The notes under the pieces were generated by a model. It made no database searches, had not been told where the DNA came from, and saw nothing but the letters and a program-made list of their open reading frames with translations. A stretch of 59,045 nucleotides of DNA, the filler included, from Dugesia japonica (taxonomy: Eukaryota): NCBI GenBank assembly GCA_001938525.1. It is 6 parts of 6 records of this genome, joined end to end, with 100 filler letters (N's around TTAATTAATTAA, not from the genome) between each part and the next. Parts side by side here need not be neighbours in the genome. Positions count along the whole stretch, not along the records: positions 1 to 10,211 come from MQRL01592121.1; 5 more parts are not named here. One strand, 5' to 3'. Shown one piece after another: positions 2,640 to 23,679 of the stretch. Position numbers and translations under genes: made by a program. Each line of letters starts with the position of its first letter. The stretch's first letter is position 1.

Positions 2640-3210
2640 CCATCGGTAGTCACTGCAGGATTTCATATAACACATAAAAAAACCCCGATTCATGTCTCAA
2701 AGGTTCTGGTTTTTTTTGGTGAACTGAAGCTGGTATTGTGAATTACGATTTTTGAACAATAATTAAACAGTAACAGATTTACACAGAACAATTTAAACGT
2801 GCCAAAAGAATATTGCTTCAGAAACAACTTGTGCTAATAAATATAAATCAAGTGATACTGTTACAAGAAAATTCAAGGCTTTTTATTGGAAAAACCATGC
2901 GACAAAAATTGAATCCCTGCAATCAGAAATTCTGTCACATTAACCTTATTTTCTGAATGGACTATTACCTATTTTTAGTTATAGGAAATCATTTCAAAAA
3001 TATTGAAGACATTTTAGCAGAAGTTAGCAGGTCTTTCGCATCAAAAGACACAGATTTTTATAAAAGTGGAATTTACAAACTAATGTCAGCTTAGAAATGT
3101 TGTTCATTATAACGATGACTATTTTTATTGTTTGATTTATATTTCAAATTTTATTTGACATTCATAGTTTTATAAACAAAAACCCCACGAACTTTCCGGT
3201 TCAACTGATA
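2640..3210 (+). mobile_element. Degenerate mariner transposase C-terminal half with right TIR
   Basis: Decayed motifs KPDFMSQKVL (KPGLHPKKVM), AGIVNYDF, VILLQENSR (LLHDNARPH), PYF..DYYLF (PYSPDL..DY.LF), FASKDTDFYKSGIYKL; ends in a TIR-like cacgaactttccggttcaactga followed by TA. Confidence 0.7.
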
Positions 3211-4349
3211 GAAGAACCAGTCTCTAAAATAATGTCTTACTCGAAAAATGTCAAATGTAAAAAATTTCATCTATATTTGTTTGATGAAAAGTGAGAAAAA
3301 GAAAATCGTCTGTTTTTGATCGACATTTTACCTAATATAAAATTTGAATTACAGACCAAATCAAAAATCGTGAAGTAACTGTTATTAGCTCTGATAATAC
3401 ATTTGTAATTGTATATATGGAATCGGAGCAGCTACAAAATGATTAATTCATTGTACAAAAATTGGGAAAAAATACAATTTCTGATCCAAGAGAAGTGAAT
3501 AAAAAATCCATTTTGAGTTGGATGTTAACGTTGCACATTCCTACCAAAACCTTAAAAGATGTAATACTATTAGCTGATAAACCAAGTAGTTATCAGGTTG
3601 AACTTAAAATGCTTATATACAGAAAGGCATGATCCAGCCAGGAAAGCTCCTTCCTATTAGATAAAAGAATGCTCAATAAGGTACCACAAATTAAGATATA
3701 TTCAAGCTATCAAGACGTATTGAAATTGAGAAGAAATATCCAAACACGTGTTTGCTAGTGATTTGAGGTAACCAAGTAGGTGATAACGAATATTTATTTG
3801 ATGTCTACTCATCGTCAAAAGTGGTAGCTTACCCTCCTTGTCCCTGATAAAGTAAGTCATGAATTACAATTTTCTCCAATTTTATTCCCAACGAAAGTTA
3901 TATAATCTATTTATTTAATTCCTTAATAATTTGCTTATTCAATTTATATTACATATTGTTTATTCTTTTCTCAACATAGTATGATTTTACATTTGTATGT
4001 TCATTGAAATTCTTTACTTTTCTAGCTGAGCCTAACTAATTATTGAAATTTGTCAGAATTTCGAAATTTTTATTTCGACATGAAGTTAATTCTTGTTATT
4101 ATGCGAGATTATTCTAATATTTCATTATACAATGTAAATTAGAAAGAGAGGTATACAGATTATAGATGGAGCTAACATAAAACGAGCACAACTGCTTTTA
4201 AAGGATTTATAAAAGTATAATAATAACTACTGTTCCTTAGCACTACCATTTTATTAGGCATCATGCTATTTTCTATATAACCTGAAAAATGCCCTTTTTT
4301 CATAAAAAAAATAATAAAATAATTTAGATAAAAAATAGAAAAATAAAAA

Positions 4350-4600
4350 ATTCTATGAAAAATTTTCCATGAAACATTTCCCATGAAAAATTTCCCATAA
4401 AAAATTCCACATAAAAAATCCACTATGAAAAATTTCCCATGAAAAATTCCTCGTAGAAAATTCCCTATGAAAAATTTGACACGAAAAATGCGCGATAAAA
4501 AATTCCCTATGAAAAATTTGACACAAAAAATCCTCCATAAAAAATTCCTCGTAGAAAATTTCCTATGAAAAGTTTGACACGAAAAATGCGCGGTAAAAAA
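4350..4600. repeat. Subterminal tandem array (~15-bp AAAAATT(T/C)CCATGA-type units with a ~60-bp higher-order duplication) upstream of Polinton pPolB
   Basis: Visible repeats; 4441-4500 is nearly duplicated at 4540-4598. ORFs 4172-4636 and 4353-4538 are by-products of this array. Confidence 0.85.
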
Positions 4601-4681
4601 AAATAAAAAAAAACCTCTTAAAGAGGATACTTCCATTTACCTCCTTTTTATATAAATATGATTAAAGTTTATCTTTATAAA

Positions 4682-7600
4682 ATGGTAGTAGAAACATTCA
4701 ATTGTAGTTACTGTAATAAAACCTTTAAAAAAAGGAGCTCTTAAAACTCATAAAAAAATATGCATGAGTTGTTAAATCCAACACCATGTGAAAAGTGTCA
4801 TGTGGTTTTTAGATCACCTATACATTATGAAAAACATAAAATGTCATCATTATGTTGGAATCCGATGGATGTAAGTTTAACATGTGAAATTTGTAATAAA
4901 AGATTTTCAAACCAAGGTGCAGCAAAAACTAATTATGCAAGTAGAAATCATAAAAGATTAATTCCTAATATAGAAATAATAGAACAAGAGACTGCAGAAC
5001 TTATGAATGTTTTTGGAATTAATATGTATAGAGGTTATAAAATACAATATTTTAAAGAGAGTAAAGTTGATTTTATAAAAGACATTTCTGACGAGGAAGT
5101 TAAAGTATTGACTTCTTACCATGATGAGTTAAAAGAAATAACAATAAGATTTTTTAACTTAAGAGCAGAAATAAATACTAGACTTTCTTCATTATGTTTA
5201 TATTCAAAAACTATAGAGGGAAAAGATGTGAAAAGAGAATTTAGATCTTATGCGAGTAATAAAAAAATAATAATGTTTGTAGAAATTGATCTGGTCATAG
5301 GAAAATTAATTGATGATATAGATAAATATACAACTAATAAAGCAAAAGCTGAAAGTGGATGGACTGTTGAATTTATAATAAATTTTACATTTACTCTTGA
5401 ACGATATAAATCACTAGCAGGGACTTATGTCAAGTTACCATTTATTAAAAAGGGAGTTGTAAATATAATTAATAATGATAATAGATGTTTTCTATATTCT
5501 GTTTTGGCACACAAGCACATTTACACAGATCCAACAAGACAAAGTCATTATATGCAGCACATTGATGAATTAAATTTAACAGGTATTGAATTTTCTACTA
5601 AACTTCGACATGTGCAAATGTTTGAAAGATTAAATAAATGGAAAATTAATTTTTTAGAATTAAAAATAATAAATGGAGAAAAAATATTACAAGCATTAAA
5701 GATTCCTCATCATGATGCAAATCCAGGACCTGAAGAAAATAAATGTAATTTATTGTTTTATAAAAATCATTATATTTTATGCAGAGATGTAGATGGATTT
5801 ATTTCTGTTGGTTATAGAAAAAAAATATGTTTAAATTGCATGAATTATTATGTAAGTGTAAATTTATTTACTAAACATCAAAGACAATGTATTTATTTTA
5901 AACCTCAAGAAATAAAATTTCCAACAAAAGAATATTACTCATTTGATGATTATAATTTTATGATTCCAACCCCATTTGTAGTTTATGCAGATTTTGAGGC
6001 GGGAATCAATTCAACAACAAATATACAAATGCCAATAGCTGTAGGTATTTATATTCATAGTCGACATCAAGAATTAATAAAAAATTGTTATAAAATTTTT
6101 TGGAGGAAATGTTATAATAGAATTTATAAGATATTTAAATCTATTAAATAAAAAAATATATGAAATTCTTGATTCAAGATNNNNNNNNNNNNNNNNNNNN
6201 NNNNNNNNNNNNNNNNNNNNNNNNNNNNNNATGTTATAATAGAATTTATAAGATATTTAAATCTATTAAATAAAAAAATATATGAAATTCTTGATTCAAG
6301 ATCATACGCTAAAATTAATAAAAAACCTAGAAGTTTTAAAGATGAATGCTTTTATTGTAAAAAAAATTAAATGAAGATCCAGAAGAAGTTTACAACTTTT
6401 TCAATGGAAAATTTATTGGTCCTGCACATGAAATTTTTAATAAAAAATATAAAAACATAAAGAAAAATTTCTTTGTACCATTTTATTTCCATAATGCAGG
6501 TGGTTATGATAATCATCTTTTCTTTAAAGAATTATTAGAAAAATACCCATCAAACATTACAGATATAATTCCACGCAATGATGAAGTTTATATTTCTTTT
6601 AGATTTAAAAAAATAAAATTTCTTGATTTATGTCCATTAATTACAATTGAAAAAATGGGAGAAAATTTAAAAGATCTTGGAATATATCCAATTTTTAAAT
6701 CTTTTAATTTAGAACCCAAAAAAGTTGTTTTTCCTTATGAATAGGCAAGAGGAGATAATATAAAAGAAGTGATGGAAATATTAAAAAGTAATAGAATACC
6801 AACAAGGGAAGAATGTTACAACACATTAAACAGCAAGAAATATCAGAAAAAGATTATAAACAATTTCTTGAAGATCTTAGTAAATTTCCTAATCTCTGGG
6901 AATACTTGCTACACTACATGAAACTTGATGTAATAATTCTTGCAGATTTTTTCCAAGATTTTAGAAAGACTTCTATGGGAAATTATGGAATCGATCCATG
7001 TTTTAATTACTCTTTATCAGTAGTTACATGGTCAGCAGGAATGAAATTTACAGGAGTTGAGTTATTATATGCAAAACCAGAAACCTATGATTACTTTTTA
7101 AAAAATGAAGAAGGAATTCGCGGAAGAGTATCTGCTGAAACCGGAGAAAGACAAGTATTTAGTTATACTAAAGATGAACCTTTTAAGAGAATAACAGAAG
7201 TTGAGAAAGAATATTTATTAAAATTAATGGAAAGTGGAGGAACTATTCCAGAAGAATTTTTCGAGGAATAATTTTTAAAATATATTGATCAAAACAGTTT
7301 ATATTCAGCTTGCATGAAAAGACCACTTCCAACTGGAGAGTTTACAGAATATACTGATTTAACATATGAAAAAGCGACACCCGAGCTCAATTTTCTCTGT
7401 GAAGTGGATTTAGATTATCCATGAGAAAACGAGGTATTTCCCATTAGCACCCGAAAGGTTAAATATACAAGATGAAATGTTGAGCCCATACCAAAGAAGT
7501 TTTAATAAAAAACTTCCCAAAGATAATTTAAAATTAACACTAAATCAATTCGAAAAAAAAATTACATTATTCTAGGAAGCACTTTAGATTTATATCTTGA

Positions 7601-8486
7601 ACTTGGAATGGTGTTGAAAAAAATTCATGTAAAATATAAAGTGCCGATGAGACCATGGTTTAAAGATTATATTCTTTTTAACGTTGAGAAATTTGACATT
7701 TAAAATGTCAAATAATGCATTTTATGGAAAAGCCTTGGAAAACCCAAGAAAATATACCAAGTTTGAAATGGAGGGATCTGACAAAGACTTTCGTTAAGAC
7801 TTTCAGGTTTGCATCAAGACCAGCTTATATTTATTCAAAAACATTTTCAGAAAATACATGCGCAATGCACATGTTACAATCTTATGTAAAATATAATAAA
7901 TTTCCTTTCATCGGTTTCACAGTATTGGAATATGCGAAAGAGCAAATGTATGATTTTGTGTATAAAAAGATGGCACCAGCAATTAGAACAGAAAATTATA
8001 AAATTCACTACACCGACACTGATTCATTGTTTGTAGAAATCAGAGGGCGNNNNNNNNNNNNNNNNNNNNNNNNNNNNNNNNNNNNNNNNNNNNNNNNNNN
8101 NNNNNNNNNNNGTATAATTTTACAATGTGATTTTATAAAGTCAAAAACTTATGGAGTTTTATTTGTATATGATGATGGAAGAACATAATTTAAACCAGTT
8201 CATAAGGGAATTTCTTTATCCAACAAATTAAAAATGGAACAGTTTGAAAATGTTTTAAAAAATCCAAATAAAATAGTTTATGGAAGGAATTATAGATTAA
8301 AAATCAGACTGTCATGAAGTTAAATTAGATTATCAAGATAAAATTGCATTAACTGCTTTTGATGACAAAGTTTTGATTGAAATAAACGGAATTATAACTT
8401 GGCCACATGGAAATCAATTTTGGTGTACAAGATGTGAAACGTGGCATTTTAGGTTAGATCTTTTATGGGGTAGATTAGACTGTTAA
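4682..8486 (+). pseudogene. polB: Polinton/Maverick protein-primed family-B DNA polymerase (pPolB) with three N-terminal zinc fingers; full length but frameshifted
   Basis: ATG 4682 CSYCNKTF..LKTHKKNMH, CEKCHVVF..H, CEICNKRF; ESGW; NNDNRCFLYS..HYIL (OTU-like); ExoI VYADFE (~5980); ExoII FHNAGGYDNH (~6487); KVVFPYE; ExoIII YMKLDVIIL; GIRGRVS; motif A YIDQNSLYSACM (~7281); motif B KMSNNAFYGK (~7702); motif C YTDTDSLF (~8009); KSKTY, HKGI, LTAFDDK..TWPHG; stop at 8484-8486. Confidence 0.95.
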
Positions 8487-9029
8487 TTTTTTTAAATCAA
8501 ACTTTGGATTTTCAATTTTAGATTTTAAAATTATTTTATGATTTTCACGAATCATAGATTTACTTGTAGAAATTTCTTCATCACTTAAAATATTATCATT
8601 TAAGGCTTTCTGTTGAAATATGAAAAGTTTATTTTTAACTGCCTCTAATTTTACAATAAGATTACTATACTTCTTTTGAATTAAAGATAAATTCAATGCA
8701 CCGGTAATTGGAATTGTAGAACCTATTCCAGTTATTATGGGAAGACCAATTGTATTAATTCCTATTCCAATAGGAGTTACAAAAATTACACCAACAATGA
8801 CAACGCCGGTTCCAATTATAATTTGAGCAACTTTTATTCCGTGATCGGCGGCGGCTCATTTTGCATAAAATTTTCGATAATGTTTTATTTTATCATTTAA
8901 AAAGTAAAGGTCATTTTCGAAATCTTTAATTCTTAAAGATGATAATTTACTTTTTAAATCTTCAAGTGTATAGGAATTTATTTCTTGTTGATAATTTTTT
9001 ATATGGGGATATAATGATTCTTCTACCAT
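8475..9029 (-). pseudogene. Polinton-associated two-TM membrane protein (184 codons, one internal TGA)
   Basis: ATG 9029 MVEESLYPHI..RIKDFENDLYFLNDKIKHY, then a Gly-rich hydrophobic hairpin (IIIGTGVVIVGVIFVTPIGIGINTIGLPIITGIG) and KALNDNILSDEEI. In frame with ORF 8475-8696. The pattern is recalled from invertebrate Polinton accessory genes. Confidence 0.7.
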
Positions 9030-9047
9030 TTTAATATAGGAAATTTT

Positions 9048-9464
9048 TTATAGTTCATCGAATATTTCTTTTATTTGACTTTTAGAATTAGCAGTTATAA
9101 TAATAAGGTTGTTAATATAAATATTTCTTGGCAAAATTAAATGAAATTTTTTTATGACTACGCTTATCAGTAGATTAGGTGGAATATTATTATTAATTTT
9201 ACCACCCTTTAATTTTAAGGTATTTATTTCTAATTTAAATTTTCCTAGTTTTTCAAATGTAAAATTTACAATTTCATCAGAACCAATAAAATTGATAATA
9301 ATACTAAATTTATGTATTTTTGTATATCCAGAAATAAGAGCGTATATTGGACCAAGTTTTTCAACAGCTGTAAAATAAAGTTTTAAAGGATTAGCAAGAA
9401 AAAAAAATAATGTTTTTCCAAAATATTCCCAGCGACCACTTATTATTACTTTTTCTAAACTCAT
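9048..9464 (-). CDS. Uncharacterised Polinton ORF, possibly the frameshifted C-terminal part of the fibre-like gene
   Basis: 138-aa ORF tightly packed between Polinton genes; coding-like sequence continues upstream (NDPLFPWILEYQKIK, ~9690-9775). Confidence 0.4.
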   Translation of the reverse strand: MSLEKVIISGRWEYFGKTLFFFLANPLKLYFTAVEKLGPIYALISGYTKIHKFSIIINFIGSDEIVNFTFEKLGKFKLEINTLKLKGGKINNNIPPNLLISVVIKKFHLILPRNIYINNLIIITANSKSQIKEIFDEL

Positions 9465-9765
9465 ATAAACTTTTTCAATAGACTAATATGGAAATCTATT
9501 ATTATTTTTACGAAAAAATAACATTTTAAAACATATATATAATTCTAAGTAAACATCATTCCATAGTAAATAATTATCAACTAATTCTTTTAATTTTTCT
9601 AATACTAATGAAGATTTAGTTTTTATATATATTTCTCAATTTTCATTAATTTTTTTCACATGATCTGGGTGAAGACTTTTTTTTATCTTTTGATATTCTA
9701 AAATCCAAGGAAATAAAGGATCATTTTTTAATAAAGAAATTTCTTTTTTCTCCGCAGGATTAATT

Positions 9766-10211
9766 TCATTCTTCACCAATATTTTGTTTTCTTAAACATT
9801 CAATTTCTTTTTTTAATTTTTCAACATCATCTTTTATTTGATAAAAAAACTTTAAAATAAATTGTTTGAGAAATTTATTATTTACTAGATCATCTTCTTC
9901 TTTAGGGTCATTAGAAATTTTAATGGTTTTTAATTTACTTTCAACCATTTTTAAATTTTCTTCATTATTAGTTTTAAATTTACTTTCGAAAAATTTTAAA
10001 TTTTCTACATTATTAGTTTTAAGGAATTTTAAATTTACTGCATCAAGTTCATCTTTGGGAGCATCAAAAATTTTTAAGGATTTAATTCTATCCCCAGACT
10101 CATTTACAAATCTTTTTTCATTGCTTGCATCTTGTATTCTTAGTTTGCTTGAAATTTGATTTAAGATTTCAGCATCATTCATCATTTGTGAGCTTTCTCC
10201 AAATATGTTCA
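9766..10211 (-). CDS. Polinton fibre-like protein (N-terminal part)
   Basis: Starts (M)NIFGESSQ at the scaffold edge; two repeats PKDELDAVNLKFL / PKEEDDLVNNKFL resemble the P-x4-DA(V/A)xK-x-Y stalk/neck repeat of fibres and trimeric adhesins; followed by a coiled coil. Confidence 0.55.
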
Positions 10212-10311
10212 NNNNNNNNNNNNNNNNNNNNNNNNNNNNNNNNNNNNNNNNNNNNTTAATTAATTAANNNNNNNNNNNNNNNNNNNNNNNNNNNNNNNNN
10301 NNNNNNNNNNN
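10212..10311. other. Artificial scaffold-joining spacer N44-TTAATTAATTAA-N44 (also at 18823-18922, 27883-27982, 36343-36442, 44915-45014)
   Basis: The identical 100-nt block occurs five times; TTAATTAATTAA puts stops in all six frames. Confidence 0.97.
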
Positions 10312-15693: not shown

Positions 15694-16143
15694 ATTCCTC
15701 TACTAATGACTTTATTTCTTTGATATTTTTGTCGATCTTCGTGGTTGATGGTCTTCCGGATCTAGGGTCATCTGTGACAGTCTTACGACCATCTAAAAAT
15801 CGTGCATGCCATTCATTAGTTATTGATTTTGATAAAGCATTGTGGCCATAGCACTTCTGTAGCATTTTCAAGGTATCAATACGTTTAATTTCGTTTTTGA
15901 CGCAGATTTTAATACAAATTCTTTGTTCAATTATATAATTATCATCCATCCTACAAATAGAAGATACCATTAAAATTAATTTAAATAAATTACTGAAGCT
16001 TTTTCAAATTACGATCTGTTCAGCTAGAATTTGGTGATGTAGTAAAACAAATATGTAGCAACTATTAAAAATAATAATTACATCTATAGCATTTATGTGT
16101 GAATGTTAAATTGTTTTGACCGGATATTTTTTGATCATGGTAG
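15694..16143 (-). mobile_element. Mariner element 5' part (TIR plus transposase N-terminal HTH), truncated by a Polinton end
   Basis: ORF 15692-15970 EQRICIKICVK..LKMLQKCYG..WHARFLDGR..DDPRSGRPST; TIR CTACCATGATCAAAAAATATCCGG begins at 16143, flanked by TA. Confidence 0.9.
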
Positions 16144-16987: not shown

Positions 16988-18573
16988 TATAGGTTGTGTG
17001 AATATGTTTTCTGCTTTATTTGTTAGAAACGGATTACGTACCATAATTTGTACATAATCGAGCTTACTCTCTATCTGATCAAGCACCGCTGTCTTTTGTA
17101 AAACCAAATCTTCACATCCAGACACGCATGTTGGGCATCTGGTGAAATAAACAAGGTCCGATTCATTGAGTTGCTTCAACAAGCTGAACCATTACGGTTG
17201 CTCTTTACTGTGCCCAGTTTTCAGGGTAATATGTATTACTTGTATTAGATAATTCTTTTAACACAATAAATAGATAAGTAATATAAATAACCAAATACAC
17301 TTTTAATATTTTAAAATGTTTATTTTTTTATTTGATAATAGGTCTAGTTAGAAAAATGAATAAAGGCTACATAAGATGTGTTACAAGATTTATTGATAAT
17401 GATAAAAACATTAAAAGACATTTAAAATCGATTGTCGAAGAAAATCCTAAAATTATGTTATATAAAATAATATAATATAAACAATAATTTTGAAGAATCT
17501 AGTAAAATAGAAAACAACTTTGGTCTCTGAATTTTGACAAATGGACAATAAATGATAAATGTATTTTTAAATTAAAATTAAAATTTTATTTTGATTTTTT
17601 ATTTTACACAAAAGATTAATCAAATTCAATGTCACGAAAATCAACTCCACGTACTCTTTTCACTACATACAATCTACAAATAGGACAATTTTTCAATAAT
17701 GACGAACAGCTTTGGCAAGTTTTCCAATGACCACATGGAAGAAATATAACTTCAACAGGCTTATCGAGACAAACAACACAAATAAATTCAGATAGAATGA
17801 ATTCTAAAATTAAATATTTTATATTAATGTCATCTTATTATAACGTAAAAATGAAAAGCATTTGAAAATTTAACTATTAAAATTAATTCAATTATCACCC
17901 GTCAAAAATGACGATTTGTAAATGAAATTTTAGTAGTCAAAAATTTTATAATGGTCTGAAAAATTAAACTAAATTTTAAGGATAAAAAATAAACTGAAAA
18001 AAGTTTATTGATTTCAATAATTTAATAATTACAATATTTTTGATGAATGTGCAATTATTATTTAAAATTGTTCCTTGATTGGTTAATTGATATCCAATAT
18101 ACTTACAATAATGTCAACCTGACAGTTACGTTATTTTTTTAAAAATAATGTTATTATTAAAAATAATGTTACTTTATAATTTTAACGGTTCTCAAAGGTT
18201 AGTTTAATTTTAAATTTTTTTAATGTTACACTTTCATAATTTTTTTATAATTCCGTTCAAAATTTTATTTTTTACATGATTTTAAAAAAATAACAGTGAA
18301 TTTAAATTTTATTTATTTTTGTGTGACTGAAACATTTTGCTCTGTCACATCTTCAAAAAGTTTATTTACATTAATTTTTTATATAAATTAAAATTTGAAT
18401 GAAATTAGACTTTAATTTCATACATCGTATTTACAACTTGTATGCACTGTAATTATTGTACAAAAATGTTTTGTGCCATATTTTAAATTTCAATAAAAAA
18501 TACCGAAAATTATTGAAAAAAATTATTTATATGATCAAACTTTCATTTTACTAGTTATATTAATCGTTTATAT

Positions 18574-18822: not shown

Positions 18823-19680
18823 NNNNNNNNNNNNNNNNNNNNNNNNNNNNNNNNNNNNNNNNNNNNTTAATTAATTAANNNNNNNNNNNNNNNNNNNNNN
18901 NNNNNNNNNNNNNNNNNNNNNNGATCTTGGAAATAATTTTTCTGGGGTTTTTAAGATTTGGTTGTGGTAAGACCAAAATTCGGTCTATATATTGTTTTAA
19001 TGACTTTGAGGTTTGATGAATGGGTTGTCCTAGAAATGTGGTAGCGCACGGTCACAGTCGTATGAGTTATCGTGGGGTGTTTCTTGGGAAATGTATGTTT
19101 GTATGGGGTTGTAGGATTTTGTTGGTTGATGNNNNNNNNNNNNNNNNNNNNNNNNNNNNNNNNNNNNNNNNNNNNNNNNNNNNNNNNNNNNNNNNNNNNN
19201 NNNNNNNNNNNNNNNNNNNNNNNNNNNNNNNNNNNNNNNNNNNNNNNNNNNNNNNNNNNNNNNNNNNNNNNNNNNNNNNNNNNNNNNNNNNNNNNNNNNN
19301 NNNNNNNNNNNNNNNNNNNNNNNNNNNNNNNNNNNNNNNNNNNNNNNNNNNNNNNNNGTCATAATCTTTTGAAATCTTTATTTGTAGTAAAAATCCTGTA
19401 TTTTGCTTAAATTGATGAATTTATAGAAAGTAATGATAATTTTGTAAAAATGATGTATTTTTGAGTATTTTTGAGTGATAAGGGTTGTTTTTAATATTTT
19501 GTGATGTGGAAAGAAGAGAACCTTAATATTTTTTGAATTTTGTTTTTTGCGGGAAATTAAAAAAAATATTTTTTGGTTAGAAATTTAAAAAAATATATTT
19601 CGGCGGGAAATTTAAAATTTGATATTTCAATGGGAGGGGGGAATTTTTGTAATATAATTAAATTTAATATAATTAACATA

Positions 19681-20140
19681 GTTACTATATAAAAATACCA
19701 TCATATGCATTATATTACACGTTTGCTATGTAAATAATTCCCTCATAAGTCTTATATTATACAGTTTCTATGTAAATAATACACTCATAAACGCTATAAT
19801 ACACGGTTGCTATGTAAATAATACAAGGTAACTATGTAAATAATATACTCATAATCCTTATAATACACAGCTGCTATGTAAATAATATATTCATAAACCA
19901 TATAATACAGGGTTACTATGTAAATAATATATACTCATAAACCATATAATACAGGGGTTACTATGTAAACAATACACTAATAAACCCTATAATAGATAGT
20001 TGCTATGTAAATAATATACTTATAAACTCTATAATACAAGGTTACTATGTGAATAATATACTCATAATCCTTATAATACATGGTTGCTATGTAAATAAAA
20101 CATGGTAACTATGCAACTAATATGCTTATTAACTCTACAC
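19681..20140. repeat. Minisatellite, ~42-bp unit, ~12 copies
   Basis: Consensus approx. GGTTRCTATGTAAATAATAYACTCATAAACCYTATAATACAC; two copies shortened to ~22 bp. Confidence 0.92.
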
Positions 20141-20249
20141 AATCATAAAAATATTTTCTTATAAGTTTTAATCTATGGAAAGGCACCATCAATTTATGAT
20201 TTTTATGAAAAAAGTTCTAATTTTATCATTTTGCAAAGAAATGTTCTCA

Positions 20250-20670
20250 GCTAATGAAATTTTTTATTAAAAAATTACAACACTAATGAGATTGTTTGTT
20301 AAAACTTGCATCGGTAATGAGATTTTTTTATAAAAATTCCATTAGTAATGAGATTTTTTATTAAACGTTGCATAACTAATGAGATTTTTATTCAAAATTA
20401 CAACTCTAATGAGATTTTCTATTAAAAATTGCATCAGTTATGAGATTATTTTTTAAAACTTGCATTGTCAATGAGAGTTTTTATTTAAAATTGCATAACT
20501 AATGAGGTTTGTTATAGAAAATTGTCACTAGTAATATATTTTTTATAGAAATATATCATAACTAATATGTTTTTTTAGAAAAATTACACGACTAATATGT
20601 TTTTTATAGAAAAAATTAGGGGACTAATATGTTTTTTTAGAAAAATTATCTAGCTATATGTTTTTATGAA
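20250..20670. repeat. Minisatellite, ~31-32-bp unit, ~13 copies
   Basis: CTAATGAGATTTTTTATTAAAAATTGCATCA drifting to CTAATATGTTTTTTATAGAAAAAATT along the array. Confidence 0.9.
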
Positions 20671-20769
20671 AATAGTTCTGTTTTTGTAAAGAAAAGTTTT
20701 AATTTGAATATTTTATTATGTAAATATCACGAAAACTCTTCTCTTTGAACTCTTTTGATAGATATATTT

Positions 20770-20993
20770 TAATAAATGCAACTCAGAGGCAATACAGCTG
20801 CAACACGCATATACTGAAAATCATGTGCCTGGGAATTTTTTATTAATAAATAAGTTAGGTATGCGACTCAGATGCAACACACATACAACAAAAATCACGT
20901 GCCTGGGAATTTTTTATTAATTTTTTTTGACTTTTTAATAAATGCAATAGGTATGCAACACAAATCCAATGAAAATCACGTGCATATGAATTT
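20770..20993. repeat. Short array of ~3 longer units
   Basis: Three occurrences of TGCAACAC..AAAATCA(C/T)GTGC..GAATTTT. Confidence 0.75.
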
Positions 20994-21325
20994 TAGACTC
21001 TCCATCCCTTGTAAAAAATCAAATCTGCTCCATATCATGCTAAATATAGAATCTCCCTATGTTAAATATAGTCTCCCCATGCTAAATATCAAGACTGCTC
21101 ATGCCATGCAGTAATATTAAAAAATTAAGACTGCCCATACCATGCATAAATATCAAGACTGACCNATCTTAAGTAAAATATAAAGACAAATAATCAATAA
21201 TGCTTCAATCAAGACTGTCCAATCTCTTACAAAAATATCAAGACTTACCCATTTACTACAAAATATCAAGACTGTCCATGCCATATAAAATATCAAGACT
21301 GCCCTAACTCATACATGAATATAGT
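20994..21325. repeat. Minisatellite, ~28-31-bp unit, ~11 copies
   Basis: CCATGC..AAATATCAAGACTGC units; the same unit occurs at 14810-14910. Confidence 0.88.
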
Positions 21326-22639
21326 CTTCTCAAAAAAAAATTTAATTTAATTTAATTAAATTTAATTGTATTAAAAAAATTCCCCAACCCCAAAGATATA
21401 TAAAATTTTAAATTTCTCGCCGAAATATATTTTTTTAAATTTCCCGCAAAAAACAAAATTCAAAAAATATCAAGACTTCACTTTTCCCACATCGAAAAAT
21501 ATTAAAACAACCCTTCCCACTGAAAAATAATCAAAAAATACTCAAAAAATTTACAAAAATATCATAACTTTCTATAAATTCATCAATTTAAGCAAAATAC
21601 AGGATTTTTACTACAAATAAAGATTTCAAAAGATTATGACNNNNNNNNNNNNNNNNNNNNNNNNNNNNNNNNNNNNNNNNNNNNNNNNNNNNNNNNNNNN
21701 NNNNNNNNNNNNNNNNNNNNNNNNNNNNNNNNNNNNNNNNNNNNNNNNNNNNNNNNNNNNNNNNNNNNNNNNNNNNNNNNNNNAAATATTAACCAATCAA
21801 ATTTGAGCACAACCAATCAGAAATTAAGTCAGAATCGACATCCAAAATGTTTTCCATTGCATTACCTTTCTAACAATCCATCAACCAACAAAATCCTACA
21901 ACCCCATACAAACATACATTTCCCAAGAAACACCCCACGATAATTCATACGACTGTGACCGTACGCTATCACACTTTTAAGTTTAAAAATACACACACAC
22001 CTAGGATAAAAAAAAGATCCTATCAAAAAACATTTGATTCGATCAAAAAATTTTTTATCCCAAAAATCTTAGAAAAAAAACAATCACAAAAATACGGTCA
22101 CAATCGTAAGCAATTGTCGAGCCCTCCCTGGGGATTGATGGAGAGGGGGGTCCTTCAAATAGTGACCATTTTAAATTGTGATCGTGCGCTACTATCCCAT
22201 TACTCCTGGAAAACGGATGAATATCAGAAACAGATTGAACGAATGGTGGCGGGAATAGAAACAACTTTCAAAGAAATCTTAAGTAGTAGGTAAATTGTGG
22301 TGCATAACACCACTTGAAAAGACCTATTAAGGTTCCTCCGTCGACGATCGAATAAAAGTTTTAAAAAGTGGAGTTATTTTTGGTATATATTTTTAAAATT
22401 TTGAAAAAATAGACAATAATGATTATTATTGTAAAATTGCCGTTTAAATATGTTGTAAAGTCTTCCAATATAATGTTTATCTTGTTTGAATTTTTAATGA
22501 AAATGAAAAAAAAATCATAATCCTAATAGAATCCATCTCTGACAAATATAATAGTAAATCGTCATTTTTATTTAGTGTCTGGTATAAAGAATCTAACAAT
22601 CGAGGGCTCTATGAAAGATCCCCAGAAAAGCTAGAGCGT

Positions 22640-23270: not shown

Positions 23271-23451
23271 TTTCTATAAATATAGATTTAAATTAAATTT
23301 TAAATTTTCTAGTTTGATTTGCTCAAGCATATGTGTAATTAAATGAAACATTTGATTGAATTACTTCATATTCAGATAAATTCCAAGATATAATATAAGT
23401 ATGGGGGAAAAGACGATTTTAAGCCAGGGGGGTATACTACCTTTTTCATTT

Positions 23452-23679
23452 TAGATTTTTCATGAAAAAATTTTACATTAAGAAATGTTTTACAAAGATT
23501 TTATTTTTTTAATTTTAGTGTCACAAACATCAAATTTTCAAAATGAAAAACTTTTCTTCAAAAGGTTTTCCATCAAAGAAAAATTTGATGTGTGACATTA
23601 AAAGTAAAAAATAATATCAAAATAAAACACTTCCTAAAAAGCATAAAAAATTTTTTCATGAAAAATCTAAAATGAAAAA
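23452..23679. repeat. ~230-bp imperfect palindrome upstream of second pPolB
   Basis: 23452-23539 is the reverse complement of 23578-23679; the central segment tgaaaaacttttcttcaaaaggttttcca also folds. Confidence 0.88.

Follow-up and report, generated by a model that had tools for sequence, protein, structure and literature searches.

Two loci in the genome of Dugesia japonica are decayed protein-primed polymerase (pPolB) genes of the Polinton/adintovirus type, probably of the Beta class, and we put at roughly 60% the probability that their predicted terminal protein (TP) bears a zinc-finger leader that is one of several interchangeable leaders and whose likely role is to anchor the primer-polymerase precursor on DNA, either at the element end or on host chromatin. 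The window, by which we mean the whole stretch of DNA analyzed (59,045 nucleotides), is a chain of short AT-rich scaffolds with N44-linker-N44 joints at 10212-10311, 18823-18922, and 27883-27982, and copy 1 (from 4682) and copy 2 (from 23894) lie on separate scaffolds. Their products share 37% identity over 321 amino acids and 45% over the 56 amino acids of fingers 2 and 3, their DNA is 66-68% identical in the longer pieces, and they form sister rows on a pPolB tree (99, starred). These joints and this divergence bear out the preliminary description of two divergent pPolB genes on different scaffolds, and the order along the gene, fingers, TP, vOTU protease, zinc site, exonuclease, and polymerase, agrees with its placing of a TP region and an OTU-like protease ahead of the exonuclease. 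A third pPolB fragment, holding the polymerase part only, begins another scaffold (28132-28696, - strand).

Copy 1 (4345-8486, all features on the + strand) is preceded by a 14-bp tandem array (4345-4600) near the left end of a multi-copy element, in which ATGAAAAAT occurs six times and TGCGCG twice. Depth in the contigs of four public DNA runs is about 10 over 3200-4199 and runs to hundreds from about 4200-4300 onward, and copy 1 therefore belongs to a large family with its left end near 4200-4350; these contigs hold many related copies, and among those listed none spans the finger region at near identity. The gene opens with an ATG and a broken first finger (4682-4763), with the Cys pair in the ATG frame, which has stops at 4742 and 4751, and the His/Cys ligands in a neighboring frame; either decay or an assembly slip may be the cause. 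Finger 2 (4787-4855) is C2HC with H-x5-C spacing, and finger 3 (4883-4951) is a degenerate finger of matrin/JAZ type with Asn in place of the first His ligand; the Pfam finger matches of copy 1 fall below cut-off. Downstream lie the predicted TP domain (5033-5407), assigned by model topology and Y-polymerase little-finger matches, with the predicted linking Ser in ESGW (5351-5362); the vOTU protease domain (5432-5797), which matches OTU structures and has its catalytic Cys (DNRCF, 5477) and His (KNHY, 5762); and, between vOTU and exonuclease, an internal C2HC zinc site (5828-5890) that is conserved family-wide, C359 and C362 being invariant in 105 rows. Everything from finger 2 through this zinc site to the first exonuclease motif falls within one 465-codon frame. 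Stops, frame breaks, and two N gaps interrupt the exonuclease and family B polymerase (5984-8486), whose motifs (5984, 6487, 7287, 7711, and 8009) are present but spread over several frames. An exact 72-nt duplicate flanking a 50-N gap at 6109-6302 is an assembly overlap inside copy 1, and the convergent frames that follow at 8475-10211 (- strand), among them a hydrophobic 126-amino-acid frame and a frame with a 45-bp repeat, are probably accessory genes of the element.

Upstream of copy 2 is a repeat region (23442-23730) with a short 14-bp array, four occurrences of ATGAAAAAT, one of TGCGCG, and a perfect 33-nt inverted pair (23442-23474 and 23647-23679). From the ATG at 23894 all three fingers (23909-23977, 24002-24070, and 24098-24166) share one frame (23894-24271, +), which breaks before the TP, between finger 3 and the TP, at about 24265-24271. 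The fingers are C2HC, C2HC, and a matrin/JAZ-type C2H2, and Pfam places zf-C2H2 (E 5e-10) and zf-C2H2_jaz (E 1e-9) above cut-off. A frame for TP, vOTU, and zinc site follows (24267-25220, +), with stops at 24585 and 24882, and then polymerase remnants (25222-25740, +) left after two large internal deletions that took out the exonuclease together with motifs A, B, and C of the polymerase. Neither copy reads uninterrupted from the ATG through three fingers into the TP; the frames of the two copies overlap, however, and the fingers and TP must therefore once have been a single reading frame. The claim that both genes open with three fingers accordingly stands for copy 2, with three in frame, and is qualified for copy 1 by the broken first finger. 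The shared YKI.YFKESKV block is conserved sequence, but it is two blocks about 60 amino acids apart, and copy 2 has YEI in place of YKI; the (G/E)SGW, D-x2-CF, and HY motifs are found in both copies as described (ESGW/GSGW, DNRCF/DDKCF, and KNHY). Beyond copy 2, the frames at 25884-27700 may resemble Polinton PZ and penton genes, a likeness for which follow-up searches gave no confirmation. A Pfam scan of 88 frames gave no match to an integrase, packaging ATPase, protease, or major or minor capsid protein of such an element, on scaffolds that end within 2.2 kb and do not reach the right ends of the elements.

A structure model was built on 105 rows (pLDDT 79, pTM 0.58), a single-sequence fold with pLDDT 31 having been discarded; the junction from leader to TP is poorly modeled (pLDDT under 50, residues 79-91). 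The modeled TP has Y-polymerase little-finger matches with Z 8.5 (rmsd 3.5, 115 aligned) and Z 8.1 (rmsd 2.7, 98 aligned), the vOTU matches OTU structures with Z 6-7.7, and Foldseek gave no match at E 0.001 or better. Although these Z values are middling, the predicted TP and vOTU are the folds reported for Polinton in the consulted part of PMC11161782, where the linking residue of the TP lies between helix 2 and the last strand. The Ser of ESGW occupies this position in the model, as in a PRD1-like TP with a linking Ser or Tyr, and the vOTU has its catalytic Cys and His. Among the best 150 of 2316 representatives scored the linking Ser is kept in 139, the OTU Cys in 147, and the OTU His in 141 of 150. 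The model thus supports a TP domain with Ser in the linking loop, followed by a vOTU.

How common such leaders are was assessed by a finger-blind survey, in which 2316 representatives were scored and the best 150 examined; because the query comprised the TP and vOTU only, fingers were unable to bias it. Rows with at least 95 amino acids before the Ser were counted (102 of 150) and the remaining 48, with under 95, were dropped. One or more fingers stand ahead of the TP in 31 of the 102, two or more in 16, and three or more in seven, against 1.6, 0.05, and 0.01 expected from shuffled N-termini, and a chance motif is rejected. The counts are a floor, as gene calls are truncated. Pfam backs the fingers in 11 of 15 relatives checked. 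Chimeric gene models may lie behind some of the database proteins: P0093 looks like one, with a C-terminal finger array, and in P0200 the finger lies far upstream. Intact relatives carry their fingers within the polymerase ORF, as the preliminary description supposed. In the unrelated P0105 family six full-length members of 1325-1340 amino acids keep three fingers in this ORF, and the five proteins scored in a spider family carry from three to five; fingers as a separate ORF are rejected. Polymerases of this kind account for many entries that databases list as "C2H2-type domain-containing protein" or "Zinc finger protein".

The remaining 71 of the 102 relatives have no finger, so the finger is dispensable. 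Rho_N leaders occur in four of 53 proteins scanned, and AT-hook-like repeats were read by eye in P0046; Rho_N or AT-hook-like leaders stand in the finger position in P0040, P0043, P0056, P0182, and P0046. Because scattered fingers, Rho_N, and AT-hook-like leaders are found at one position, the leader appears, on sequence comparison, to be a variable slot that has been repeatedly filled.

The proposal that a triple-finger start marks one lineage did not survive the tree, a quick one in which 47 of 101 branches are open. The any-finger state clusters weakly (21 changes against 27.8 shuffled, reached in 1 of 300 shuffles), and the state with three or more fingers shows no clustering (eight changes against 8.7; 68 of 300 shuffles). 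The two copies belong to a local clade of 10 rows (SH-aLRT 93, unstarred). Six of its rows have a single matrin-type finger and one, a short row, has no finger; the others are the two copies and a further triple, so that a finger is present in nine of 10. In a 10-row alignment at 33-86% identity, the four ligands of the matrin-type finger are invariant, and the nearest relatives of the copies have that one finger. A unique lineage trait is thus rejected, three or more fingers being scattered over the tree. The zinc-finger leader is, as far as these sequences indicate, a common and widespread add-on of Beta-class polymerases, neither the hallmark nor the invention of one lineage.

Comparison with described systems places the copies close to Polinton/Maverick pPolB. 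They share with it, as far as the consulted part of PMC11161782 goes, the order TP-vOTU-EXO-PALM, a little-finger-like TP whose Ser lies between helix 2 and the last strand, the vOTU Cys and His, and the exonuclease and palm motifs; they differ in the zinc-finger leader ahead of the TP and in both being broken. With the Beta-class adintovirus PolB (PMC8502044) and pPolB2 with its HNH insert (PMC10748475) they share, in the portions consulted, the OTU domain. Divergence from pfam03175 and an Endonuclease VII/HNH insert characterize the Beta class and pPolB2. The copy-1 pieces have no pfam03175 match, relatives carry Endonuclease_7, and the insert of the copies is degenerate and goes unrecognized by Pfam: 6370-6864 aligns at 40% with residues 470-626 of P0063, overlapping the Endonuclease_7 match of that protein, while a Pfam scan of the copy-1 pieces gave no match to Endonuclease_7. 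The word "zinc" is absent from the main text of PMC11161782. In the parts consulted, no mention of fingers on PolB was found in PMC8502044 or PMC10748475, nor of fingers on pPolB in PMC11161782, PMC8097293, PMC3671162, or 10.1101/2024.03.25.586562. The preliminary description had allowed that a triple-finger start might already be general among pPolBs. This is nearly the case, in that fingers are common, yet no description of a finger leader was found in the accessible article text searched; the leader is apparently new to print.

As to function, the leader is likely a swappable DNA-binding tether of the TP-polymerase to element end or chromatin, a role proposed by analogy. The vOTU would cut between the TP and itself, a cut behind the TP that the consulted part of PMC11161782 argues from the size of the pGKL1 TP, and because it falls behind the TP the leader would remain on the genome-linked TP of free copies. 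This favors the earlier suggestion that the fingers stay on the released TP, as does the absence of a Gly-rich motif resembling a maturation-protease site between fingers and TP in both copies and the ten relatives shown. We suggest that the clade kept one matrin-type finger beside the TP and that the ancestor of the two copies gained two C2HC fingers, which would have raised affinity. The leader would thereby raise the DNA affinity first of the precursor and then of the TP-capped free genome, doing the job of the N-terminal DNA-binding domain of the phi29 TP or of NFI and Oct-1 at the adenovirus origin. The phi29 TP (PMC4357725, consulted portion) also has its DNA-binding part N-terminal to the priming domain, but its fold is unrelated, it has no zinc, and its sequence-independent binding is proven experimentally. 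Adenovirus pTP-pol (PMC5363728, consulted portion) has a homologous TP and is recruited to the origin in trans via DNA-binding domains of host proteins; in the copies the binders would be fused. A putative DNA-binding leader that varies and is found on about one-third of relatives offers a testable handle on how Polintons find their origin, for which the dead copies 1 and 2 are poor material and intact relatives, such as the P0105 family, better.

Repeats of 14-bp period stand directly upstream of both genes with ATGAAAAAT and TGCGCG cores in common, which raises the possibility that the fingers recognize the subterminal arrays of their own element sequence-specifically, as a self-encoded origin recognition module. 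We hold this possible but doubtful. In its favor, 10 of the 14 window matches to ATGAAAAAT lie within the two arrays, and the chance of finding such a 9-mer in common with a random 14-nt unit is 1.6%; array 1 shares four copies where random segments share at most two in 2000, a comparison that ignores tandem amplification. The window has just three occurrences of TGCGCG (4489, 4587, and 23687), all within the two arrays, and the motif is possibly a host transcription-factor site. Against specific reading, none of the eight base-contact residues of fingers 2 and 3 match between the copies despite the common cores, although the decay of copy 1 blurs this comparison either way. Sequence-specific C2H2 arrays of Krueppel type have a 28-amino-acid period, H-x3-H spacing, and a TGEKP linker; the copies have a period of 31-32 amino acids, H-x5-C/H spacing, and no TGEKP linker. 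By the matrin/JAZ pattern (C-x2-C...H-x2-S-x2-H, with zf-C2H2_jaz or zf-met), finger 3 is above cut-off in copy 2 and below in copy 1. Contact positions in the P0105 family vary at four of 12 against 25 of 1313 others, which speaks for specific reading, but this signal was found post hoc and rests on three haplotypes. The variable sites of P0105, P0216, P0218-P0220, and P0222 (near-identical, 1325 amino acids) number 29, of which four are at contacts, three of them in finger 1. Also in favor, a single-finger family shows no change at helix positions -1, 2, 3, and 6 among 20 of 20 members, with variation at 11 of the 18 remaining positions of the finger. Read from sequence, the pairing of shared cores with different helices would suit host-factor sites no less than targets of the fingers. 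A broader version, in which swappable self-encoded leaders (C2H2 arrays, matrin fingers, Rho-N, and AT-hooks) on the Beta-class Polinton TP replace the host factors that adenovirus needs, and contact residues co-evolve with each family's subterminal array and so bar cross-family replication, is a conjecture we consider rather unlikely.

The preliminary description also proposed that the fingers could steer integration, which would then be directed to chosen host sites. A DNA-binding domain linked to the incoming genome could keep it on chromatin, and the hypervariable contacts in one of the related families would be consistent with a target in the host; according to the consulted part of PMC11161782, however, the TP should be removed before integration, and because it should come off first we judge this proposal weak and very improbable. 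RNA or protein binding is also within the range of C2H2-type fingers, and a leader that is near-neutral cargo, an RNA or protein binder, or a piece cut off at virion maturation seems improbable to us, if less so. Finger 3 is closest to zf-met/JAZ and finger number varies freely, as such a leader would allow, and a Gly-rich motif, a possible protease site, precedes the TP in 17 of 72 relatives, where shuffling predicts 5.4; it is nevertheless absent from this clade, and related families preserve their ligands and helix residues. Ubiquitin-binding finger types scored weakly in Pfam. The zf-met/JAZ proteins of large DNA viruses were the top feature matches (score 0.96), a lead only, since their recognition value is below threshold, and unlike the copies they are small stand-alone proteins.

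Four RNA runs (6-25% of each read) have zero depth over fingers 2 and 3 (bins 4855-5156), with poly-A-type matches only nearby, and no RNA data set was among the matches listed. A word search found no close relatives of residues 60-260, and locus searches of metagenome and viral contigs gave no usable locus and no intact element with flanks. Elsewhere in the window, 738-1070, 32164-32379, 15695-16003, and 17619-17834 contain fragments of integrase (rve) and RT-RNase H along with a Mos1-type HTH and a RING finger frame, and 19031-21979 is a non-coding, transposon-like element of about 3 kb whose inverted arms are long and which has internal arrays of 42, 31, and 27 bp.
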